A stretch of DNA of 64,000 nt. It comes from a virus. Below the pieces are notes generated by a model. It was not told where the DNA came from and did not search any database. It saw only the letters and a program-made list of their open reading frames with translations. The number at the start of each line of letters is the position of its first letter. Positions within the stretch are counted from its first letter, which is position 1. Made by a program: the position numbers and the translations under genes. Location: IMG/VR virus record IMGVR_UViG_3300048919_000048, positions 64,001 through 128,000 of that record; one strand, given 5' to 3'. Below, in pieces: positions 17,743-54,037 of the stretch.

Positions 17743-20178
17743 TTAGTTAGGTCCACCCTGAATCAACATGTTGAAGTTGAACTGGTTGTTCTCGTCAACA
17801 ACGGCACGGATCATGTTCTTCAGTTCGCCAGCCTTGATCTCGATGGTCACGTTACCTTCGACCTTCTGAGGCTGCGCTGGGAATGGAATTCCTGTTGGTC
17901 CGGTGATCCCGGCACCCGGGCCTGGGGTCCCGATAGTCGGTGCATTGAGATTACGAGGTTTGTTGAACCATTCGTCAAGGACATCCATCAGGCCAACGGG
18001 ATGAAGTGACATACCGTACTTCTCTTGCATTGCCTGTTGGTCAATCCCTGCTTCAGCAAGACGTTCGTCACCACGTTTAACGAAGCGGTCATTCAACATG
18101 CTTCCGCCTGCGTAAACCTCACCGAGGATACCCAGTTTGGCAAACTTACCGAGGGCCTTCCAACGTTCCAAGAAGGACAGGGGCTTAGGAGGACCCGCAG
18201 GGCCACCTGGGGTTCCGGCAGCAGGACCCGCAGGTCCAGCCCCTGGTCCACCCGTGGAAGCAGGGCCACCCATTGATTCACGGATAGCAACAAGGGCACC
18301 ACGCAGGCCAGCGATTTTTGTCAGGATCTTGAAGATTCTGTTCAACCCGCCGACGAAGATCCCGATTCCGAGAGCATATCCGGCCCAATCGAAGACTTGC
18401 TTCAGCATGTCCCCCTGATAACCGAGCTTCTCTGCGTAGTAGCTGACGATACGATCCAAGAGCACGAAGTCATCGTGGATCTCTGTCACCATGTCCCAGA
18501 ACCCTTCGATTACGTTCCCGAAGAAACGACCGAGGTTTTTGGCAAGGTCACCGTTACTATCGAGGATCTTGGCAAGGTCACGGAACACACGAGTCATCTG
18601 CTCACCGAAGCCACCTTCGAAGACGGCGTTCTGGAAGTTAACCCACGTCTGCTGCATCTGCTGCATAGCCACTCGGTTGCTGTTCAGCGCCTTATCCAGC
18701 GCACCACCCTTACGGGCAGCTTCAGAGAAGTATTTGGCAACATACGGCAGAACTTTGGCAGATTTCAATTCACCCTTCTGCATCATATCCATCAGTTTTT
18801 CAACGTCGATGGTTGTATCGCCAAAGGCTTCTTGTGCTGCCTTAACGAACACTTGCAGGGAGCCGGGAATACCTTCCGCCAACTGACCTTTCAATTCTTC
18901 AGCCATGATCTGGCCTTTACCCATCATCTGCCCGATCGCGGTGATACCACGCTGGAACTTGACCGGATCCACCTGAAGGGCTGTGGCGTACTCAGAGAAG
19001 CCTTTGAACAGTTCATCGTTCTGAGCCTTGTTCAAGATACCGTCGGAGTTGACGGACATCTGTACGTAACCCTGAGAAGCAATCTTCAGATCCAAGCCCA
19101 AACGGTATGCCTGATCTTTCAGGAACTTGATTCGTTTAGCCGCCTCATCTGATGAATCAGAAACCATCGTCATAGTCGCATCCATACCCTGGAAGAACTG
19201 ACCCTGACGGAGAACTGAAGCGCCGGATGCAAATACCCCATAGGCTGCTCCCGCATTCAGCAGTTGGGAACGAATATCACCAAGGGCCGCTCCAAACCCG
19301 CCCGCATTCGCTTGAGCGGAACGGAACTGTCGTTCCAGCGCCTGGATGCTCTGACGGTACTGACCTGCTGAGAGTGTGCCAGCCTTGAACTGTTTGTTCA
19401 ACTCTTGGATGCCATTACCTGCACCGTCTCTTCCGAGGGAGCTTTGATAATTGCGTCCGTATTTTGAAGAAAGGCGGATTCGCTGCTGGGACATCACATC
19501 GTCGATGCGGGCTGCACGGGCAGCTTCAGAAGCACGTTGACGAGCCTCTGCTTTTGTCTTACGATCCTGTGCCTGAGACTGAGTACGGATACGACCAGCC
19601 ATTGCCCGGTTTTGACGAGCAATCAATTCTGGGTTGTACGGTTTGTTCGGATCTCCCACCATCCCGGTGCCGAAGCCACTACGAGGGGGAAGAGGAACAG
19701 AGTTGATGCGGGTAACGTTGAGGGGACGAGATGCAGCATTCATACCAGTCGTTGCTTTACGGTTGGCTTTTTTGGCCTCACGCTCTTGCTGCTGGTAGAA
19801 CTTCCTCATCTCTGACATCCCCTCACGGGGTGCGGTCATCTGCTTGACCTTCTGGCGAATGCGGGCTGAAGAAGCTTTAGCGATTGCCTCTTTGGCACGA
19901 GCCTCTTTTTTGGCAATGGCGATGCTGTAGTCGGATGCACGTTTTTCTTCACGCATACGGGTTTCAGCCAGGCGCTTGTTCACCAAACGCATCTGGGCGG
20001 CAGACTTGTCATAAGCTTTCGCCGGGTCTTTCTTAGGCTTGGTGATGGCATCGGATGCCTTCTCCCATTCCTTGCCCACCTGGCGAATCTGTTTTACCGC
20101 ACGGTTATAGGAAGCCTTATCGACCTCAAATGTTGTACGGTTGACCGTTTTGGTTACGATCACGTTTCCACTTGCCAT
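17743..20178 (-). CDS. tape measure protein
   Basis: AIGQMMGKGQIMAEELKGQLAE motif; helical; synteny. Confidence 0.9.
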   Translation of the reverse strand: MASGNVIVTKTVNRTTFEVDKASYNRAVKQIRQVGKEWEKASDAITKPKKDPAKAYDKSAAQMRLVNKRLAETRMREEKRASDYSIAIAKKEARAKEAIAKASSARIRQKVKQMTAPREGMSEMRKFYQQQEREAKKANRKATTGMNAASRPLNVTRINSVPLPPRSGFGTGMVGDPNKPYNPELIARQNRAMAGRIRTQSQAQDRKTKAEARQRASEAARAARIDDVMSQQRIRLSSKYGRNYQSSLGRDGAGNGIQELNKQFKAGTLSAGQYRQSIQALERQFRSAQANAGGFGAALGDIRSQLLNAGAAYGVFASGASVLRQGQFFQGMDATMTMVSDSSDEAAKRIKFLKDQAYRLGLDLKIASQGYVQMSVNSDGILNKAQNDELFKGFSEYATALQVDPVKFQRGITAIGQMMGKGQIMAEELKGQLAEGIPGSLQVFVKAAQEAFGDTTIDVEKLMDMMQKGELKSAKVLPYVAKYFSEAARKGGALDKALNSNRVAMQQMQQTWVNFQNAVFEGGFGEQMTRVFRDLAKILDSNGDLAKNLGRFFGNVIEGFWDMVTEIHDDFVLLDRIVSYYAEKLGYQGDMLKQVFDWAGYALGIGIFVGGLNRIFKILTKIAGLRGALVAIRESMGGPASTGGPGAGPAGPAAGTPGGPAGPPKPLSFLERWKALGKFAKLGILGEVYAGGSMLNDRFVKRGDERLAEAGIDQQAMQEKYGMSLHPVGLMDVLDEWFNKPRNLNAPTIGTPGPGAGITGPTGIPFPAQPQKVEGNVTIEIKAGELKNMIRAVVDENNQFNFNMLIQGGPN

Positions 20179-20404: not shown

Positions 20405-20779
20405 TTAACCTCCCTTAAACTTCTTGTTTCGGGCAGCGATCTCTTGATTCCTGCGAGCCTGGTCGATATCCTTCTGCTGGGCTTCCTGAACGAAGTCCTG
20501 AATATCAAGATACTCATTCTTCTTCAGAAGGTCTTCCATATCCCCGGCCTCAATGGTGAGTTCATTCACACCTTTGAATCGCTCCATCACCCGGTAAGTG
20601 AGGTAGTCGTACCATTTAAGAGATGAGTGCTTCCGTGCATACTCGATTGCCTTCTCTACTGTACTCAGCGGGATCAGATTTCCGTCTGGTTCGTCTCGTC
20701 CAGTTGATCCACCGCTCGTGCCAGCCCCAGTTTTTTGAGGAATGTGTCGATGGTCCCGAAACCGCTCTTTCCGAAAAAA
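20405..20779 (-). CDS. tail assembly chaperone, frameshift extension (GT-like)
   Basis: -1 frame overlapping upstream chaperone; T TTT TTC slippery site at 20773-20779. Confidence 0.7.
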   Translation of the reverse strand, partial: FFRKERFRDHRHIPQKTGAGTSGGSTGRDEPDGNLIPLSTVEKAIEYARKHSSLKWYDYLTYRVMERFKGVNELTIEAGDMEDLLKKNEYLDIQDFVQEAQQKDIDQARRNQEIAARNKKFKGG

Positions 20780-21147
20780 CAACCGTAGTTGACTTCAACC
20801 ACCTTACTCAGCAGAGTGATCAGGTCTTCAACGTGGTCCTCGAAAACGATGTCGATGTCGATTGGGCCACCCATGCTGTCTACTTCGATCCCTTCCAAGA
20901 GCAGGTCCAGAATCTCTTGACCGCCATCCTCAATTTGGTCGAGGATATAAAGGATCGCTGTTGGTACTGCGTCTTGCAGACCTTGACCGCCGGAGAAGGC
21001 AGAACCAGCCATTGTGCCCATCGGTACTGCCACCAGGCGACCAATCTTAGGCATATTACGAATCACTTGGCTTGGTGACCAGTGATAAATTGTAAAGCGC
21101 TTTCCGCCGCACAGAATAATGTCTGTGGACTTCTTAACCTTAAACAT
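20674..21147 (-). CDS. tail assembly chaperone (G-like)
   Basis: Start MFKVKK with AGGAG RBS; between tube and tape measure. Confidence 0.8.
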   Translation of the reverse strand: MFKVKKSTDIILCGGKRFTIYHWSPSQVIRNMPKIGRLVAVPMGTMAGSAFSGGQGLQDAVPTAILYILDQIEDGGQEILDLLLEGIEVDSMGGPIDIDIVFEDHVEDLITLLSKVVEVNYGCFFGKSGFGTIDTFLKKLGLARAVDQLDETNQTEI

Positions 21148-21218
21148 GATACACTCCTGTGTCTTCTGTTGAAAAATCCATGCCGTGAGAAAAGGCCACA
21201 TCCCTGTGGCTCACGTTG

Positions 21219-21701
21219 TTATTGGTCCAGACCAACCAGACCAGTAATGCCTGCGACAGCACCTTGGATCTGATCAGGAGACAGCCACGCATCCAGTACG
21301 CCGATTTCCCAGTCCATCTGACCAACTTCGGAACCGTAGGTCAGGTCAGGCTGTTTCTGAATCCAACCGATGGTGTTCAGGGACAGACCCTGAGAACCTT
21401 CGACTTGGACTGGCAGGTAAATCAGGCCAGTTACGTTGGCTTGGCGCTGCCACTGGGCCAGATAGCCGTTCCAAGGAGCGGTGTTCTGGAGTGACAGGGT
21501 CATTACCCCGGTGTTGTCACGGGACAGGGCGTTACTGATCTCGCCATCTACGCCCGCATGGACGGAGATGTTGTCGTTGTTACGAGAGATAACGATCTTC
21601 GTATCCGCTGCGAAGCCAGCAACACGCTGTCCACCAATGAAGACCAAGACTTTTGCCGGGTCATACGCCTGAAGCGTCAGGATTTTGGATTGGTTCAGCA
21701 T
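21219..21701 (-). CDS. tail tube protein (DUF3277-like)
   Basis: AYDPAKVLVFIGGQRVAGFA; follows sheath. Confidence 0.85.
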   Translation of the reverse strand: MLNQSKILTLQAYDPAKVLVFIGGQRVAGFAADTKIVISRNNDNISVHAGVDGEISNALSRDNTGVMTLSLQNTAPWNGYLAQWQRQANVTGLIYLPVQVEGSQGLSLNTIGWIQKQPDLTYGSEVGQMDWEIGVLDAWLSPDQIQGAVAGITGLVGLDQ

Positions 21702-21704
21702 CTA

Positions 21705-23126
21705 TTACACTCCTACAGCAGAAGAGGTCATCGGGGTCTGAGCGTTAGTGCTCTGGCCCGCCGGACGATCCAGTACAACGGCGGCGCGGATCTTGACGTA
21801 GTGCAGGGAGTTGTTGTACACAAGCTCTACCTTCACGTCACGCAGGATACGTGCAGCGAGGTCATTCGTCGGGATCTCAGCGCGTTTCGGAATGGTGATC
21901 GTCGGGTCATAAGACACTTTGTTTGTAGTGTCATAACCAGTCAGGATAGCACCGTTACGAATACCGATGTTGATCGGGTTGTTCATCAGTACAGACTTCA
22001 GAACTGGAAGGTCTTCGTCGCTCATCTTCATGGACAGGCCCATGTCAGAACGGCGTTTCATGTACGCAAACACGGATTCTTCCATACGGAACTTAACCCA
22101 GTGGGAGAAGCGAATCACGTCAACGTACTGACCGGATGAAGTTTTACCTTCGATGTAGCTACCAGTGCCGTACAGGCTGCGGTAGATGTTGGCGTTACGA
22201 GACCAAGCGTTTGAGCGCTGGGTGTCTGATCCAACAAACGGGGTCATTCCCGGCATCGTTTTCAGGTGCAGAGAGTCGCCGTATGATGGGTCGTTCGCAG
22301 CCATCGCGCCGATAACGGAACCTTCAGTGAAGCTTACGTCAGCGCCAGCATCGGAAGTTCCCAGAGAGTCGTAGCTCAGAGCCTTCAGCGTGTCAAACAC
22401 AGAAGAGGATGAGTTCTCAGGGGCGTATGCATCAGCATCCGTGGAGTTGTAGATGTGCAACTTGTAGTTCGCCTTAGCAAACTCAGCAGCAGCAACGATG
22501 TCTGCATCAGCACGGGCTTCTGTCGCCAGGAAGTACCAGTTATGGTTCTCAGCGATGACGGAAGGCAGAACAGTCGCCACGGTCTCAGCAGAGTCGTTAA
22601 CGATCTTGTAGGTGCCCGCGCCTTTACCAACGCTAACGATGTTGTCGTCAACTGCGGTCACTGTCACATAAGTGCCAGTTGCAACACCAGTAACTTTCCC
22701 GGTCAGGTCAGCATCGTTGGTGATTGCGTCTGCCAGCGCCGTAGCGATCTGGGCAGGTGTGTTGCCAGGCAGTACGTTAATTTTAACAGCCTTGACCATC
22801 TTATTCAAGGTGATATTAACGACAACCTGTTCGGTGTTTGTGGTCCCGGTGAAATCCACCTTGGTAGAGCTATTAGACATACGTCCGATACCAACACGGC
22901 GAGGGGCAAAGTTCCCTGAAAATGCGTTGGTGGCGAACTGGTACGCCGGGGAGCCTACAGCGAACCCATCAGCAACCATCCCTTCAGTGGACACGTAGTA
23001 ACGAACACGCTCTGGGAAGTTGTTGTGGATTGCCAGGAACATCGGGGTTTCAAAGCCAACGGTGTCGATTGGTTGAGTGCCAAGGCTAACCTCAACGTCA
23101 ACAACCTTGTCTTGATATTCAGCCAT
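21705..23126 (-). CDS. tail sheath protein (DUF3383-like)
   Basis: G.YVDVIRFSHW and DLAARIL motifs; 473 aa. Confidence 0.9.
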   Translation of the reverse strand: MAEYQDKVVDVEVSLGTQPIDTVGFETPMFLAIHNNFPERVRYYVSTEGMVADGFAVGSPAYQFATNAFSGNFAPRRVGIGRMSNSSTKVDFTGTTNTEQVVVNITLNKMVKAVKINVLPGNTPAQIATALADAITNDADLTGKVTGVATGTYVTVTAVDDNIVSVGKGAGTYKIVNDSAETVATVLPSVIAENHNWYFLATEARADADIVAAAEFAKANYKLHIYNSTDADAYAPENSSSSVFDTLKALSYDSLGTSDAGADVSFTEGSVIGAMAANDPSYGDSLHLKTMPGMTPFVGSDTQRSNAWSRNANIYRSLYGTGSYIEGKTSSGQYVDVIRFSHWVKFRMEESVFAYMKRRSDMGLSMKMSDEDLPVLKSVLMNNPINIGIRNGAILTGYDTTNKVSYDPTITIPKRAEIPTNDLAARILRDVKVELVYNNSLHYVKIRAAVVLDRPAGQSTNAQTPMTSSAVGV

Positions 23127-44174: not shown

Positions 44175-45965
44175 TTATTTCAGGTTTGCTGTGACACGCT
44201 CACGGATTTCAGTCAGCGTTTCGTCAACCAACAGTTTGCCGTCACGGAACACGACACGGAGTTCGTTATCGGCATCGTTGACTTGCTCCAGTTGGAGGTT
44301 ATCAACCAGCTTCAGTTCTCCGTCTTCACCACGAACAACCTTCAGGAAGCCCTGAGCAGACTTCTTGCCAAGGTCGGTCTTAGGCTCTTTGACGACCATG
44401 ATTTGCTGACCGTCGATAACCGCGCCAGTTGCCTTCACGGCCTGACCCAGAGAATCACGGGTGTTGAACTGAGTGGTGAAAGAACCAACACCAAACACAA
44501 CGTTGCTTGATGCAAAGCCCTTCGCTTCCAGACGCTCGAAGATCTCTTTGGCGCGGGCCACGGTGATGGAGTCACCGTAAATCAGACCGACATGAGTATC
44601 CAGAGTGCGGTAGCCTTTGGAGTTCACATCTCCGCCGAACACATCGTGCAGGAGTTCAACAGAACCTTTCTGCTCGTTGGTCAGTTCTGGCTTGTCGATA
44701 GCCGTCACCTTGCTACCATCAACGTAGTAATACGTGTATTCAGCACGGTTCCACTCAATGGAGCCACTCATGCGGTACAGTTCACCGTCGAACAGGAAGA
44801 AACGCTCAACGATGTCATCGCCACGTTCACCATGTGGAGTATCCTGACGGACCTCTTCAACGGCGCTTTCCAGTGCCCAGCTTGCCGCTTTTTCCAGAGT
44901 ACCAGCTTCATCGAGTGCCTCGATTTTACGCCAGTCGAGTGTGCCACAGATGATATCTTCCGGTACGCCGGAGTCCGGGCGGAATACCACACGACCGTCA
45001 CGGGCCATGATTTCATCTTTCAGGATGCGAACACCCTCAGTGATCAGACGGAACCAGTCATAGCTATCGCCGACATATGACACGAAACCTTTCGGGAAGA
45101 TTTCCGTGATGTAACGACGCAGGAACTCGACCTCTGCGTGGAAACGCAGGTCATCCAGCGACATTTCCGGATGCTCAGAACGAAGGCGTCCGATGATGAA
45201 GCCGATGTTCGTTGTTGCAACGCTGTGCTCGGATGCCGGGATGGAGCCGGATACGAACTTACCCTTCATACCGTAATAACGGTTTGCATACAGAATCGCC
45301 GGGATGGTATCTGTACCCTGGGAGTTCATCAGTTGACCGAACTCAGACTGCGCCGCATCGTGAGTACCAGCCTGACCACGATAAGCAAAGCAGTGGATCT
45401 GGTATGGAACGTGCAGGTTGTTGTCACAGGTTTTCTGCGCCCACAGTTCAGCCAGCTTACGATACTGCCAGAAAATGGTTGCCGTGGTTACGGTTTTCCA
45501 GTTTTCAGAGGAGATCACCGACTCCAGATAGTTAGGTAACCAGTAGAAGTCCGGATGCGTGTTCTGAATGGTGAACAGCGGAACCTGTACCGGAGAAAGT
45601 GTACCTTCCGGCAGAGCACGGATTTCAACAGGCAGGTAACCCAAGTCGTGCAGCTTTTCAAAGCCCCACGTTTCAACCATGTCCGGGCCGATAGCCAGGT
45701 CACAGGTTTCTTTGAATTCGCCGATAGCGTCTTCCTTCGGACGACCGAAGAACTCACGGTTGAAGTGGTCGATCAGGAACCACTTGATAAAACCTTGCAG
45801 TCCGGCAGACATGACGCGCTGGTCATTGTCGGAGAAATGCTGGAAGTGCTTGCTTGATCGTGGTGTCATGTTGTCCTGTACGATTTCAGACTTTTTGCTG
45901 TACATGGAGATGTGGCTTGGTTTATACCAGTCAGCAAACAGAATAGGCAGGTCATTATGTAACAT
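44175..45965 (-). CDS. nicotinamide phosphoribosyltransferase-family enzyme (Namat-like)
   Basis: DWYKPSH, IPASEHS, VFRPDSG, LIYGDSIT, VVFGVGS, KKSAQG. Confidence 0.92.
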   Translation of the reverse strand: MLHNDLPILFADWYKPSHISMYSKKSEIVQDNMTPRSSKHFQHFSDNDQRVMSAGLQGFIKWFLIDHFNREFFGRPKEDAIGEFKETCDLAIGPDMVETWGFEKLHDLGYLPVEIRALPEGTLSPVQVPLFTIQNTHPDFYWLPNYLESVISSENWKTVTTATIFWQYRKLAELWAQKTCDNNLHVPYQIHCFAYRGQAGTHDAAQSEFGQLMNSQGTDTIPAILYANRYYGMKGKFVSGSIPASEHSVATTNIGFIIGRLRSEHPEMSLDDLRFHAEVEFLRRYITEIFPKGFVSYVGDSYDWFRLITEGVRILKDEIMARDGRVVFRPDSGVPEDIICGTLDWRKIEALDEAGTLEKAASWALESAVEEVRQDTPHGERGDDIVERFFLFDGELYRMSGSIEWNRAEYTYYYVDGSKVTAIDKPELTNEQKGSVELLHDVFGGDVNSKGYRTLDTHVGLIYGDSITVARAKEIFERLEAKGFASSNVVFGVGSFTTQFNTRDSLGQAVKATGAVIDGQQIMVVKEPKTDLGKKSAQGFLKVVRGEDGELKLVDNLQLEQVNDADNELRVVFRDGKLLVDETLTEIRERVTANLK

Positions 45966-46018
45966 ATGAATCTCCTCAGTTAAAAATCGGGGCGGTGTGC
46001 CCCGGAACGTGATATAAG

Positions 46019-46909
46019 TTACTGGAACTTCACCATCTTGTCAACCGATTTGAAAATTTTATTTTCGTTTCGGCCTTCGAGGTTCTTCATCCACGGGTAT
46101 GCGGAGTAAACCTCGTCGATGACATCCTTAAACACATCCGCACCGTAGGAATAAATCCCATGGGTGGTGTACAGAATGACTTCGCTTGCGCCTTGGTCAC
46201 GAAGGACCTTGCCCAGTTCGATGAAGGTTCGACCGCCATCGCAGATGTCATCAACCATAATCACACGCTTGCCCTTAACGTCAGGGCCGGAGTATGTGGT
46301 ATCCGTGATCTCATTGGTAATGAGGTTTCGGTGCTTCGTACCAACACCAATATGTCGGTGACCAACCTTCTTCGCCAGCTTGGTGACTTTCTTAATCGCC
46401 CCGGCGTCAGGTGCCACAATGACAGCGTCATCAAAGAAGCCCGGGCCGAGAATATCCAGAGCCAGTTCGTATTGCTCGAAGACGGATACGTTTTTGATGT
46501 GGGACGGGGACACGTCTGAGTGCGGGTCATCCACAATAATTCGGTCAAAGGAGCACAGCCCCAGAATTCGACCAAACACCTCAGCCGACAGCGGCTCACC
46601 TGGAACCATAACCCGGTCTTGTCGGGCATACGGGATGTAGGGCAGGTGGCAAACCTTTTTCACCAAGTGCCCGGTGCCACGACCCAGACGGTTGAATGCG
46701 TCGGTGAACAGGAGCAGGTCCATGATGGCATCTGAACTGTCCACGTTGGCATAGACCACCAGGTCTTTACCTTCCGGCATGTTTTCTTTCAGATCGGGGT
46801 TGAATGGGCTGGTCAGCATATACCCGTTGATACGGACGCTGCGCTCACCCCCGGCGAATGTTCCAAATTCGATATCCAGTTGGCTACCGCCAAGATATGC
46901 ACGAATCAT
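46019..46909 (-). CDS. ribose-phosphate pyrophosphokinase-family enzyme (Adps-like)
   Basis: F.GGE, PYIPYARQDR, DPHS, APDAGA, VDDICDGGRTF. Confidence 0.92.
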   Translation of the reverse strand: MIRAYLGGSQLDIEFGTFAGGERSVRINGYMLTSPFNPDLKENMPEGKDLVVYANVDSSDAIMDLLLFTDAFNRLGRGTGHLVKKVCHLPYIPYARQDRVMVPGEPLSAEVFGRILGLCSFDRIIVDDPHSDVSPSHIKNVSVFEQYELALDILGPGFFDDAVIVAPDAGAIKKVTKLAKKVGHRHIGVGTKHRNLITNEITDTTYSGPDVKGKRVIMVDDICDGGRTFIELGKVLRDQGASEVILYTTHGIYSYGADVFKDVIDEVYSAYPWMKNLEGRNENKIFKSVDKMVKFQ

Positions 46910-49930: not shown

Positions 49931-51306
49931 GTAACGTAACGAGTATTCTTGCAGAGTTGTCAGCAACCCGATCCTTGAAGGAGAAGGAAGCGATCCTGCG
50001 AGCAAATGCGGATAATGATGGCCTTAAACAAGCCTTCCAGATCGCATATTCCAAAGAACTGAACTTCTTCGTTCGTGGGCTGCGTGTCCCGTTCTTCACC
50101 CCCGGCCTTCGGACACTGTCAGATAGTGTCCAAATGTTGGTTGAAAACATCGCCGGGCGTGTATATACTGGTGACGATGCCAAGTCGTACATGACCCAAC
50201 TGGTGCAGACCTGCGAAGAGCCGGACACCCTGATGAAGATCATCAACCGAGACCTGGAATGTGGCATCCAGACCACGCTGACCAACAAGGTGTGGAAAGA
50301 CCTGATCACGGAACCTCCGTACCAGAGCTACACCCTGTTCAAAGAGGACCTGTTGCGTAAGTTCAACTACAAGGGCGCTTTCTCCGACGAGAAAATGGAC
50401 GGCCTGTATGCGGACATCATGGTGTGGCCTGAGCAGGTGGTCTACCGATCACGTTCCGGCAAGGAACTGAACTTCCGCGCCCCGGAGAACGTTGAACGTG
50501 CGCTGATGAAAGCGGCTGTTGACGATGACGGCACGGCGAAGCCATACGTGGCACACGGAGAAGGTCTGGTTATTGATCCAAACGGGTTGCACGGTGTTAT
50601 GGAACGTGCCGAAGGCAACGGATACCTGAACCAAGACCCGGCAGATATCGATCGTGACCGTGTTCGCCTGGTGATCTGGGACCGTGTGACGATGGATGAG
50701 TATATTGCCCGCAAGTCGAAGCGTCCGTACAGCGAACGCCGCCTGTCTGCGCAGGGCCTCGCCTGGTGGGTGGAAGATCCGGAGCACATGCAGTTCGTGA
50801 AAGGTCGACAGATCAACAGCCTCAAAGAGGCGATCGATCACTTCATCGAGATGCGTCTCCAGAAGAAAGAAGGCACGGTCCTGAAAGAGGCCGCGATGCC
50901 TTGGGGCGACAATAAGACGAAGAAAGGCGTCAAACTGAAGAACGAGTTCGATGTGGATCTGGAAGTTGTCGGGACGACCCCGCACAAGAAAGATCCAACA
51001 CTGATCGGCTCACTGATCTGTCGTACTCGTGACGGACTGCTTGAAGTTGGTGTCGGCTCCGGCCTGACCGACGCGCTTCGTAAGAAGCCTGCGGAATATT
51101 TCATCGGACAGATCATCACGATCAAGGCCAACGACATCACGAAGTCGGAGACCAAAGAGCTTCAGTCTCTGTTCCTGCCGCGCCTCAACTACAAATTCGT
51201 TGAGATCCGCTTGGACAAGACGGTCGCAAACAGTCTGCCGGAAGTGATCGAGGCGTCTGACTCACTGCTGGATCTGCTGCGGGCCATCGCGGAGGACCTG
51301 GAATGA
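49927..51306 (+). CDS. lig: ATP-dependent DNA ligase
   Basis: EKMDG, HGE, EGTVLK, VKLK, SLFLPR motifs. Confidence 0.93.
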   Translation: MSNVTSILAELSATRSLKEKEAILRANADNDGLKQAFQIAYSKELNFFVRGLRVPFFTPGLRTLSDSVQMLVENIAGRVYTGDDAKSYMTQLVQTCEEPDTLMKIINRDLECGIQTTLTNKVWKDLITEPPYQSYTLFKEDLLRKFNYKGAFSDEKMDGLYADIMVWPEQVVYRSRSGKELNFRAPENVERALMKAAVDDDGTAKPYVAHGEGLVIDPNGLHGVMERAEGNGYLNQDPADIDRDRVRLVIWDRVTMDEYIARKSKRPYSERRLSAQGLAWWVEDPEHMQFVKGRQINSLKEAIDHFIEMRLQKKEGTVLKEAAMPWGDNKTKKGVKLKNEFDVDLEVVGTTPHKKDPTLIGSLICRTRDGLLEVGVGSGLTDALRKKPAEYFIGQIITIKANDITKSETKELQSLFLPRLNYKFVEIRLDKTVANSLPEVIEASDSLLDLLRAIAEDLE

Positions 51307-51743
51307 CAGGATTTTGGATCGGTGCTGTCGCCTGCGTCATTCTCGGGTGTGTTTGGTACTGGGACAAGTTCATAACGCCAAAGCGTATGACCCGGCCCCC
51401 GGTAAATCGGATCATGGAGCTTATTGCAGAGAAGAAGCTGGAAGTGTACGACAATCCGTCACAAGCGGATCGGGATCGCTGTAGCCACTTTGTTGACTAT
51501 GTGATCCTCGACACCCAGCGCGGCGCAAAGACCTTCATGTACCGGGATGCCTTCCACGGATCTGCTGTTACCTCCGGAGATCTTGACTGGATGAATCGCT
51601 GGGAGCAAAACCGAGTTCTTAAACTGGTCGAGCAGATCTGCGGTGCCCGAAGGAAGGCGTATCGTAAAGCGTGTGCCGTCGAGAGGGAGGCCCGTGACGA
51701 GCGCCGACGGGAAGAAGCACAAAAGATTTACGAAAGTCGTTGA
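51303..51743 (+). CDS. N-terminally anchored membrane protein
   Basis: GGAGG RBS, N-terminal TM. Confidence 0.7.
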   Translation: MTGFWIGAVACVILGCVWYWDKFITPKRMTRPPVNRIMELIAEKKLEVYDNPSQADRDRCSHFVDYVILDTQRGAKTFMYRDAFHGSAVTSGDLDWMNRWEQNRVLKLVEQICGARRKAYRKACAVEREARDERRREEAQKIYESR

Positions 51744-51773
51744 CAGTGTGCCGGGGCCATGTATAATGGCCCC
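51740..51773 (+). promoter_or_regulatory. sigma70 promoter with palindromic -10 region
   Basis: TTGACA-16-TATAAT; same 23-mer as 3288-3310. Confidence 0.8.
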
Positions 51774-51798
51774 CACTGAAACAGAAAAGGAGAAGTTG

Positions 51799-52161
51799 AT
51801 GTCGCAGTTTATTAAAGATGCCATTCGTACCGAGTCCCACAATTTCTATCTGGATGCGGTTGGGCCGCGCCTGATTCACGCCTCTATGGGTCTGGTAACG
51901 GAAGCGGCAGAGTTTCAGGATGCTCTGAAGAAGTCACTGTTCTACGGTAAGCCGCTGGACACCACCAACCTGAAAGAAGAGGTGGGTGACCTGCTGTGGT
52001 ATCTGGCGCTGGCGATGGACGCACTGAACACCGATTTCGATGCGGAGCAGGATCGTGTGATCCGTAAGCTAAAGGCTCGTTACCCAAGCAAGTTCGATAA
52101 CGAACTGGCAGAGAACCGCGATCTGGCAACCGAGCGCAAGATCTTGGAGACCGACAAGTAA
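51799..52161 (+). CDS. MazG-like nucleotide pyrophosphohydrolase
   Basis: GLVTEAAEFQDALKK..EEVGDLLWY..KLKARYP. Confidence 0.85.
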   Translation: MSQFIKDAIRTESHNFYLDAVGPRLIHASMGLVTEAAEFQDALKKSLFYGKPLDTTNLKEEVGDLLWYLALAMDALNTDFDAEQDRVIRKLKARYPSKFDNELAENRDLATERKILETDK

Positions 52162-52337
52162 TGCCGATGTATTCTTACAAATGCCCCGAGTGCGGGTCAG
52201 TATTTGACAAGAATCGAAAGATTGCAGAGCGCGAAACTGCCCCTTGCAATTGCGGCGGTACTGCGGTAAAGTCTCTTTCTGCTCCCCGGGGCATTAAGAA
52301 TGGTTATTTTGAACAAGGGCGAATGTTCGTCCGATAG
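52161..52337 (+). CDS. FmdB-like zinc-ribbon protein (not in ORF track)
   Basis: MPMYSYKCPECG..F..CNCGG..SAP. Confidence 0.8.
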   Translation: MPMYSYKCPECGSVFDKNRKIAERETAPCNCGGTAVKSLSAPRGIKNGYFEQGRMFVR

Positions 52338-52345
52338 GAGGACTA

Positions 52346-52681
52346 ATGGAAACTAAAATGACAATGCAGAGCCTGGTACCGTTCGCATACGACCCGACCA
52401 AAAACGCTGTGATTTTCGATGGTCATCGCGTAACTGGTTTTGCACAGCCACTGAAGTACCGCCGTGTTGAGGAGGATACTCACGAGCTTCATCTTCAGGT
52501 CGTGAGCGAGTTCCTCCAGAAGATCGGTGTCGGTAATACTGGCGTACTAACCATCGGCGCACATGCGGGTGGCGAACGTAAAGTTTCGATCAACTGCGGT
52601 GTTCTTCGTGTGGAAACCATTTACATCAAAGAACTGACCGGAGATGTACCTGAGGTTGTGGTAGTTCTGAAAAAAGTTTAA
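52346..52681 (+). CDS. tail-tube-like paralogue
   Basis: AYDPTKNAVIFDGHRVTGFA versus tube AYDPAKVLVFIGGQRVAGFA. Confidence 0.6.
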   Translation: METKMTMQSLVPFAYDPTKNAVIFDGHRVTGFAQPLKYRRVEEDTHELHLQVVSEFLQKIGVGNTGVLTIGAHAGGERKVSINCGVLRVETIYIKELTGDVPEVVVVLKKV

Positions 52682-52750
52682 GTTTTTGTTTACACGCTGA
52701 GTTAAAACGAGCATAATGCTCACACATTCACTGAAGAGGAGTAATACACA

Positions 52751-53068
52751 ATGGCTAAAATCAAAATCGAACTGCTGAACACCCTGCCTTCTGATCCGGC
52801 TGTCCGTAAGCGCCTGGCAAACATCGTTCAGGAAGGTGTTGATGCGATTCGTAAGCAGAAAGATGGCGCAGAGGATCTGAAAAGCATCCTGGCGATCACC
52901 AAAGAAGACCTTAACATCGATCCGAAATTCCTGCGTACCCTGATCAATGGTGAGTACGACAAGCAGGATGCCGCAGAGAAAAAACGTGCGGCGCTGGAAG
53001 GCCAGATCGAACAACTGAACGAACTGGACATCCTGATGGGTCGTAAGGCCGACGAAGACGGCGAGTAA
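52751..53068 (+). CDS. dsDNA-binding protein (T4 DsbA/GapR-like)
   Basis: EDLKSI..KEDLNIDPKFLRTLI helical pattern; GAGGAG RBS. Confidence 0.6.
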   Translation: MAKIKIELLNTLPSDPAVRKRLANIVQEGVDAIRKQKDGAEDLKSILAITKEDLNIDPKFLRTLINGEYDKQDAAEKKRAALEGQIEQLNELDILMGRKADEDGE

Positions 53069-53141
53069 TACCCCGCTATGCAGTACCCGCCCCTCCGGGG
53101 GCGGTTAACCCCAAATAATAATTGAGAAAGGAGATTTACCC

Positions 53142-53420
53142 ATGAATATCAACTTCAACGATGCAACCTTCGAAAAACTGCGTTTCCTGGCTGACCGTGA
53201 AGGTCGCTCCGTAGCCGCATTCGTTTCCATGCGTATGGATGAACTGGCAGACCAACTGGTAAACACCACCTTCACTCTGAACGAACTTCCGGCGGGTGTG
53301 CAACTGGCACATCTGGACCCGACACCGCGCCCGGCCCCGGTGCGTAGCGGAGAACAAGCGTTCTACGTTCTGCCAAGCGATAATCAGAATGAGCGCCGTT
53401 ACGCTGAAGACCAATACTAA
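53142..53420 (+). CDS. ribbon-helix-helix-like regulator
   Basis: MNINFNDATFEKLRFLADREGRSVAAFV. Confidence 0.6.
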   Translation: MNINFNDATFEKLRFLADREGRSVAAFVSMRMDELADQLVNTTFTLNELPAGVQLAHLDPTPRPAPVRSGEQAFYVLPSDNQNERRYAEDQY

Positions 53421-53423
53421 AAT

Positions 53424-53450
53424 AACCGCCCTTCGGGGCGGTTTTTCTTT
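53424..53450 (+). terminator. intrinsic terminator
   Basis: AACCGCCC TTCG GGGCGGTT T-tract. Confidence 0.85.
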
Positions 53451-53459
53451 ATATCCCTA

Positions 53460-53487
53460 TTGACTCCTGCCAACCATCCTGTATACT
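53460..53487 (+). promoter_or_regulatory. sigma70 promoter
   Basis: TTGACT-16-TATACT. Confidence 0.7.
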
Positions 53488-53518
53488 ACTCACATCAAAC
53501 AACGAAAGAGGAAATATC

Positions 53519-54037
53519 ATGTCGAACAGCATTAACCTGACCTTCATCGAAAAATGGATCAACAATGTATCGATCTACCCTCCGGCAGAGATTTTCTTCC
53601 AAGCTCCAAAGAGCCAAGAGAAGAAAGAGAAGCGCTGCAAGGAGATTTGTGAGTCTCTATACCGTTTCAACTGGGAGGACTCCCCGGTGCCAAACCCAAT
53701 AGGCACTGTTCGTGAGATTGTCCGGGAGATGGTGGTGGTTGATAAACTGTTCGAATACAACCGATTCCCACCGGATTACCAGAACATCCTGAAATTGCTT
53801 GCGAGGTTTTTGAAGGCGGCATGTTATCTGATCGACCAGTTGAACGATATGCACAAAGAGCATGAGAAACTGAGCGAATGGTACTTGGAATGGCGACGTG
53901 GTCAGTTGCACATCATAATGAACGCAAACCGCTGGGGTGCTGACATCCTGCGATTGCCGACAGAGGGCGAGTACGCCGATCAGATTCAAAAACAGTTTTT
54001 AGACGACGTATCACTGACACTGAAGGAAATGGAATGA
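53519..54037 (+). CDS. hypothetical protein
   Basis: GAGGA RBS. Confidence 0.75.
   Translation: MSNSINLTFIEKWINNVSIYPPAEIFFQAPKSQEKKEKRCKEICESLYRFNWEDSPVPNPIGTVREIVREMVVVDKLFEYNRFPPDYQNILKLLARFLKAACYLIDQLNDMHKEHEKLSEWYLEWRRGQLHIIMNANRWGADILRLPTEGEYADQIQKQFLDDVSLTLKEME

Follow-up and report, generated by a model that had tools for sequence, protein, structure and literature searches.

The open reading frame studied here lies on the plus strand of the window, a stretch of 64,000 nucleotides from a complete virus genome of 151,943 bp with direct terminal repeats. Its 111-aa product was named TL (tube-like). The region around it (51,000-54,000) is 83-88% identical to Certrevirus genomes (Vequintavirinae), namely CR3, CR8, phiTE, DU_PP_I and the Enterobacter F1M1E group. 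TL is a genuine gene: a strong ribosome-binding site precedes it, and it is under selection (Table 1). As read from the sequence, it is the third gene of an operon with a putative early-type promoter, following the genes of a MazG-like pyrophosphatase and a small zinc-ribbon protein, the latter of which was always found directly 5' of TL. A sequence scan detected neither a terminator nor a further promoter-like site between the sigma70-type promoter and TL. The sequence-only reading of this DNA had placed TL behind such a promoter. The promoter is indeed present, but not directly in front of TL, as about 580 bp with the MazG and zinc-ribbon genes lie between them. Sigma70-like promoters of this form are putative early/middle promoters of Certrevirus and are concentrated where short hypothetical ORFs lie (PMC7344957). 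The promoter-like site at the 3' edge of the TL slot is kept in CR3 and F1M1E, where its first hexamer is TTGACA.

The neighbours of TL are small takeover-type genes: MazG, the zinc-ribbon protein, a regulator and a hypervariable membrane protein. The membrane protein gene (51303-51743, plus strand, 146 aa, phrog_12581, 'moron/host takeover') lies just upstream of the MazG promoter and is a second fast-evolving accessory gene of the block, its product being 36-55% identical between phages whose adjoining MazG proteins are 95-99% identical (dN/dS 0.13-0.38). Downstream, a GC-rich hairpin at 53424-53443, with an 8-bp stem followed by T-runs on both strands, resembles a bidirectional terminator and closes a short transcription unit after a 92-aa ORF (53142-53420); a terminator is annotated at the corresponding site in phiTE.

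The contractile-tail block of this phage is canonical and occupies about 17.7-23.1 kb of the minus strand. Its 160-aa tail tube is orthologous to that of phiTE, whose structure has been determined experimentally (PDB 9cb9_B, E = 7e-99). The tube gene and TL are 30.6 kb apart and on opposite strands, which, together with the position, strand and product length of the TL reading frame, confirms the original description of the locus. No third copy of the tube or TL was found in the phage's own genome. Elsewhere on the minus strand (44175-46909), the adjacent genes of a 596-aa NAPRTase/NAMPT-family protein (Pfam PF04095) and a 296-aa ribose-phosphate pyrophosphokinase-like (Prs-like) protein (PF00156/PF14572/PF13793) resemble the phage NAD+ reconstitution pathway that counters NAD-depleting defences.

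Table 1. Coordinates of TL, its operon and the tail genes in the window
Feature	Position	Strand	Basis or remark
Tape measure	17743-20178	-	Tail block
Tail assembly chaperone	20674-21201	-	Tail block
Tail tube, 160 aa, DUF3277/PF11681, phrog_280	21219-21701	-	PF11681, 33.6 bits; phiTE orthologue
Sheath, phrog_205	21705-23126	-	Tail block
Consensus sigma70-type promoter, TTGACA-16-TATAAT, heading the MazG/zinc-ribbon/TL operon	51740-51767	+	12/12 match
MazG-like pyrophosphatase, operon gene 1	51799-52161	+	phrog_229, E = 4e-44; annotated likewise in CR3 and phiTE
FmdB-like zinc-ribbon protein, 58 aa	52161-52337	+	phrog_1076; PF09723 in related contigs
Shine-Dalgarno AGGAGG, 4 nt 5' of the TL ATG, overlapping the zinc-ribbon stop codon	52336-52341	+	Sequence
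TL, 111-aa tube-like paralogue, phrog_13903	52346-52681	+	ORF, homology, AF2 fold, dN/dS
Promoter-like site, TTTACA-17-CATAAT, 3' edge of the TL slot	52689-52717	+	Serves regulator gene 52751-53068

Homology of TL to the tail tube

Attention had been drawn to TL by a 20-residue segment in which it was said to be identical to the tube at 12 positions, and this count was reproduced. Sequence comparison identifies TL as a true paralogue of the phage's own tail tube, since the BLASTP, profile-profile and PDB profile matches are all far beyond chance. BLASTP aligned TL with the tube at 22 identities in 58 residues (E = 3e-8). Comparison of the profiles of the two families by hhalign (21 members for TL, 19 for the tube) gave 96.9% and E = 1.8e-10, with TL residues 8-72 placed on tube residues 6-71 at 35% identity. 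When the TL family profile was compared with 177,635 PDB sequences, the phiTE tail tube was the sole match (E = 7e-6). Both proteins carry the segments YDP, G-x-R-V-x-G-F-A and NTGV(L/M)T, which belong to the first strands of the tube. The claim that a further strand with the pattern LxLQ is shared had to be dropped: residues 48-51 of TL align with tube residues 45-48, whereas the LSLQ of the tube sits at 69-72, so the resemblance is out of register and therefore a coincidence.

The phrog_13903 profile matches full-length TL (E = 1.1e-38). Against phrog_280, TL reached only E = 0.39, and a Pfam scan of TL returned 0 families at E <= 1, so that the PF11681 model was not matched. Scans of TL with NCBIfam and PADLOC were without a match, and an ESM Atlas search with TL gave sub-threshold, unnamed clusters only. 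An 885-aa protein (P0017) with eight matching stretches was discarded as spurious; it is repetitive, and its repeat resembles the YDP segment.

Predicted fold of TL

AlphaFold2 with the family alignment predicted the structure of TL with a pLDDT of 90.8 and a pTM of 0.79. The best PDB matches of this model in Foldseek were phiTE tube-fold chains, other tubes, VgrG and Hcp. In VIA-align, model residues 5-111 were superposed on residues 3-136 of the phiTE tube (9cb9_B) with a Z score of 10.6 over 102 residues (rmsd 3.7), and the tube of XM1 gave a Z score of 11.2. When the model was compared, independently of Foldseek, with 48,161 representative chains, all of the top 41 positions were taken by phage, tailocin or contractile-injection-system tubes or Hcp. 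The fold predicted for TL is that of tubes and Hcp, and not the different fold that would have spoken against the sequence-only reading. The beta-sandwich of the Certrevirus/Vequintavirinae tube (DUF3277, 9cb9 chain B) is seen over the whole of TL; the homology at the sequence level covers residues 8-72.

The phiTE tube protein is an eight-stranded sandwich with a large flanking helix, alpha-1; an extended beta-hairpin between strands 2 and 5 and an 18-residue N-terminal arm make the ring-to-ring interface, and a C-terminal arm with helix alpha-2 wraps around alpha-1 of the adjacent subunit and touches the sheath (PMC11972413). In the tube of the present phage, alpha-1 corresponds to residues 78-91 and alpha-2 to residues 144-158; these positions were taken from a low-confidence AF2 model (pLDDT 51.7), which was used for the placement of secondary structure only and was cross-checked against the phiTE paper. 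The alignments used for the tube monomer and for TL were of similar depth. The N-terminal arm, the hairpin and the C-terminal end of the tube model each had a pLDDT below 50, and the contrast with TL in overall pLDDT fits a tube protein that needs the assembly to complete its folding and a TL that forms a domain in its own right.

The 49 residues by which TL is shorter than the tube are accounted for by internal deletions, mainly of helix alpha-1, and by loss of the C-terminal arm. DSSP found no long helix in the TL model, just helices of 3-4 residues. A two-residue turn links strands 65-75 and 78-96 at the position of alpha-1, and, with strand 103-110 the last element of the chain, alpha-2 is absent. 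Strand 78-96, with its 19 residues, has a length typical of an inner barrel. The residues preceding YDP range in the TL family from 0 to about 20 in number and are variable in sequence, whereas the arm of the tube is conserved. The hairpin region has nearly the length of that in the tube, with a TL-specific H-E-L-H-L-Q..S..F-L motif replacing the invariant residues of the tube. DNA conduits such as tail tubes are acidic; the pI is 4.4 for the tube, which has a charge of -6.4, versus 6.9 for TL (5.7-9.2 in its family). TL had been described as truncated, which is right as to its length. A simple truncation it is not, because both helices, the conserved N-terminal arm and the acidity have been lost and the hairpin has been rewritten, while the structural alignment still spans tube residues 3-136. 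On the predicted structure, TL amounts to the core of the tube fold in compacted form, lacking the elements of assembly and sheath contact. These losses would be expected to prevent its polymerisation.

The same superfold is common to TL, Hcp of the type VI secretion system (T6SS) and the tubes of extracellular contractile injection systems. Hcp is, like TL, a compact sandwich without sheath-binding arms, and TL gave Z scores of 6.5-7.7 with several Hcp proteins, a likeness at the level of the fold only. Hcp, which forms a hexameric ring, is encoded in a T6SS cluster, whereas TL belongs to the phage tube lineage and to an early-type operon of a lytic phage.

Distribution and evolution of TL

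Homologues of TL were found in 12 of 50,697 phage records, a count that leaves out CR9-type records, although the CR9 protein is 90% identical to TL. The 12 comprise five Enterobacter/Pantoea phages of the F1M1E group, one partial Enterobacter record and six E. coli phages of the proposed genus Septuagintavirus, in which all six phages listed carry TL. The slot is kept in some Certrevirus, in Septuagintavirus and in several metagenome contigs, and wherever the context could be seen the order was ligase, membrane protein, MazG (or a larger protein), zinc-ribbon protein, TL. An IMG/VR scan with the close TL alignment gave no further loci. CR3, phiTE and most Certrevirus are without TL, and in CR3 the slot is an empty intergenic region of 75 bp. 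The synteny across genera where TL is present suggests that TL is ancestral and was lost repeatedly. A possible remnant of TL at the CR3 junction, 12 nt that resemble the last codons of TL, was rejected; the junction is uninformative on loss versus gain because these nucleotides could just as well be the AAAA-N3-TGTTGAC UP element belonging to the promoter downstream. In phiTE (positions 1832-2335 of locus L017), PBES 02 and CB7, a free-standing HNH endonuclease gene lies between the zinc-ribbon and regulator genes, and the TL slot is a hotspot of insertion and deletion.

The homologues are 25-90% identical, and their alignments are free of frame problems. Pairwise dN/dS of TL between this phage and five related loci was 0.055-0.31. 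By these sequence measures, TL is an accessory gene that is nevertheless under selection. It diverges much faster than the tube. Compared with F1M1E, this phage shows 96% identity in the tube and 73% in TL; compared with W70, the values are 74% and 29%. In dN, TL exceeds the tube by a factor of 4-8, and the flanking ligase and zinc-ribbon genes, too, have clearly lower values. The dS of TL also exceeds that of its immediate neighbours, with 0.81 against 0.11-0.42 for the flanks in the comparison with locus L008, and 1.77 against 0.08-0.54 in that with F1M1E. The excess in dS suggests that divergent TL alleles have been exchanged by recombination into otherwise similar backbones. As for the partner of TL, a protein that has to fit the tube is expected to be more constrained, and the fast divergence therefore mildly favours a partner outside the tube.

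TL and the virion

Purified virions of W70 were analysed by ESI-MS/MS, and 28 proteins were listed, among them the tube W70_123, with 220 spectra, and others of 14-15 kDa (PMC11370258, Table 2). The syntenic TL homologue, W70_162, is not among the 28 (PMC11370258); as it is a distant homologue of TL, only about 29-35% identical and from another phage, and as non-detection is no proof of absence, this result has to be read with that reserve. Published data of the kind that the sequence-only reading had called for thus speak against a stoichiometric virion component. The virion of phiTE, which has been modelled completely (PMC11972413), belongs to a phage that carries no TL gene. It is very unlikely that TL is a stoichiometric part of the virion. 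The label 'virion structural protein', attached to phrog_13903 and to the RefSeq protein of CR9, appears to rest on similarity to the tube only, and no virion data were found behind the name of the phrog_13903 family.

Duplicated and diverged tube-fold proteins also occur beside the tube of the same phage in phiTE (the tube initiator and the head completion protein) and in T4 (gp48, gp54 and gp3). Those proteins are late, essential parts of the virion, encoded in the structural module and equipped with extra insertions. TL differs from them in being smaller than the tube, of the early type, dispensable and apparently non-virion. It differs from the Certrevirus tube in the same respect, for the tube is encoded in a late sheath-tube-chaperone-tape-measure module and TL in an early-type operon from which it can be missing.

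Possible functions of TL

Very probably, TL is an old, diverged copy of the gene for the phage's own tail tube, repurposed as a non-virion accessory protein. For the role of such a protein, the sequence-only reading had proposed a mimic that occupies immune sensors. In this mechanism, TL would be a soluble look-alike of the tube, unable to polymerise and made before the real tube, and would occupy a partner that recognises the tube fold. The likeliest partner would be an immune receptor of the host, similar to DSR2 or Avs16, that detects the tube protein as a monomer and would be bound by TL without being activated. The precedent is DSR2, which is activated by the monomeric and not by the assembled tail tube protein (PMC10981675, PMC11087589). 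That part of the background cited for the proposal stands. The other part, that DSAD1 inhibits DSR2 by competition, is borne out by one study, in which DSAD1 and the tube compete at an overlapping site (PMC11087589), and contradicted by another, in which DSAD1 binds to the back of the sensor domain and blocks allosterically (PMC10981675). Receptors of the Avs16 family are also activated by tail tube proteins, and their sensor contacts a conserved beta-hairpin (2026 preprint, PMC12803255). With its rewritten hairpin and a tube fold that is presumably early, soluble and unable to assemble, TL could plausibly serve such a receptor as a non-activating ligand. The NAMPT-like and Prs-like gene pair of this phage, with its likeness to a counter-defence by NAD reconstitution, is in keeping with this reading.

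The likeness to known inhibitors is limited. DSAD1, from phages SPbeta and phi3T, is a small protein that blocks a tube sensor, a role that can only be proposed for TL, and it has not been reported to be a homologue of the tube, unlike TL. None of the searches linked TL to DSAD1 in sequence or fold, and DSR2-DSAD1 entries were absent from the Foldseek and VIA-align matches of TL, an absence from hit lists that does not exclude a relationship. We found no evidence for mimicry of the tube surface at the sequence level; the surface of TL has strongly diverged from that of the highly conserved tube, and any mimicry would therefore be one of shape. To our knowledge, the established cases of tube sensing concern siphophage tubes, and we know of no sensor of a Vequintavirinae tube and of no sensor of a myophage tube in the hosts concerned here. 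Avs-type receptors recognise core folds, and an early protein with the tube fold might trigger fold-recognising sensors rather than block them. No description of a tube-derived decoy or of the TL family was found in the literature. We put the decoy, or competitor, mechanism forward tentatively, as a possibility that is suggested by analogy with these systems and that is more likely to be wrong than right.

A function unrelated to tube recognition is likewise conceivable, if somewhat improbable. The beta-sandwich would then be a stable scaffold on which a new surface binds another host or phage target, the candidate surface being the H-E-L-H-L-Q..S..F-L motif at the former hairpin together with the C-terminal strand P-E-V-V-V-V-L-K. 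It agrees with this that the most conserved residues of the TL family are specific to TL, those shared with the tube looking like core and turn residues, and that TL sits among takeover-type genes; on the other hand, none of the searches (ESM Atlas, NCBIfam, PADLOC) produced a candidate target.

We consider it unlikely that TL modulates the assembly of the phage's own tail, by binding free tube monomers, the tape measure or the baseplate hub through the retained face of the sandwich. A modulator of this kind would stop premature polytubes or shield the tube monomers until the baseplate is ready, and tube proteins are indeed prone to polymerise by themselves after translation (PMC10981675). By sequence and fold, TL is nearest to the tube of its own phage, and it has retained the YDP...G-x-R-V-x-G-F-A and NTGV(L/M)T segments. 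However, CR3, phiTE and most Certrevirus make normal tails without TL, which also weakens the tube cap or chaperone offered as an alternative in the sequence-only reading. Nor does an early-type promoter at a distance of 30 kb from the late tail genes suit a modulator of tail assembly, and the protein that TL would have to bind is almost invariant, with TL itself evolving 4-8 times faster. Stoichiometric shielding of the hundreds of tube copies in each virion would moreover need late and high expression.

It is improbable that TL acts against foreign tubes, as a dominant-negative cap or poison of those of co-infecting phages, prophages, R-type tailocins or the T6SS (Hcp), which would give the phage a competitive edge. 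The tube/Hcp fold with its 19-residue strand and none of the sheath-contact helices would suit such a role, as would the cassette-like divergence of an accessory gene and, judging from the type of promoter, production ahead of any tail assembly. But the closely related tube of the phage itself would be expected to be poisoned too, the likeness to Hcp is of a general kind (Z about 7), and no precedent was found in the literature. That TL is a minor structural protein of the virion, such as a plug or an adaptor ring in the tail, as its fold and the database names of the CR9 homologue and phrog_13903 would have it, is most improbable, given that the names most likely derive from its resemblance to the tube, that the homologue is missing from the W70 virion proteome, that the complete phiTE virion needs no such protein, and that the gene lies in an early-type operon on the strand opposite to the structural module and encodes a protein of neutral pI.

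The broadest form of the decoy reading has TL as an early, non-polymerising decoy that saturates Avs16- or DSR2-like receptors without activating them and that is the first of a class of anti-defence proteins made from duplicated structural proteins in myophages of Enterobacteria, a class arisen independently in several lineages; in this extended form we hold it to be rather unlikely. Immune receptors that detect conserved virion proteins, the tail tube included, are now known (DSR2 and the Avs families), and TL would be a concrete candidate for the way in which phages with essential, slowly evolving tubes evade them, through mimicry of their own protein. Should TL prove not to be a decoy, the label 'virion structural protein' in the databases is still corrected, and TL documents a duplicate of a structural gene that was recruited to the early programme, a seldom described route of gene innovation in phages.
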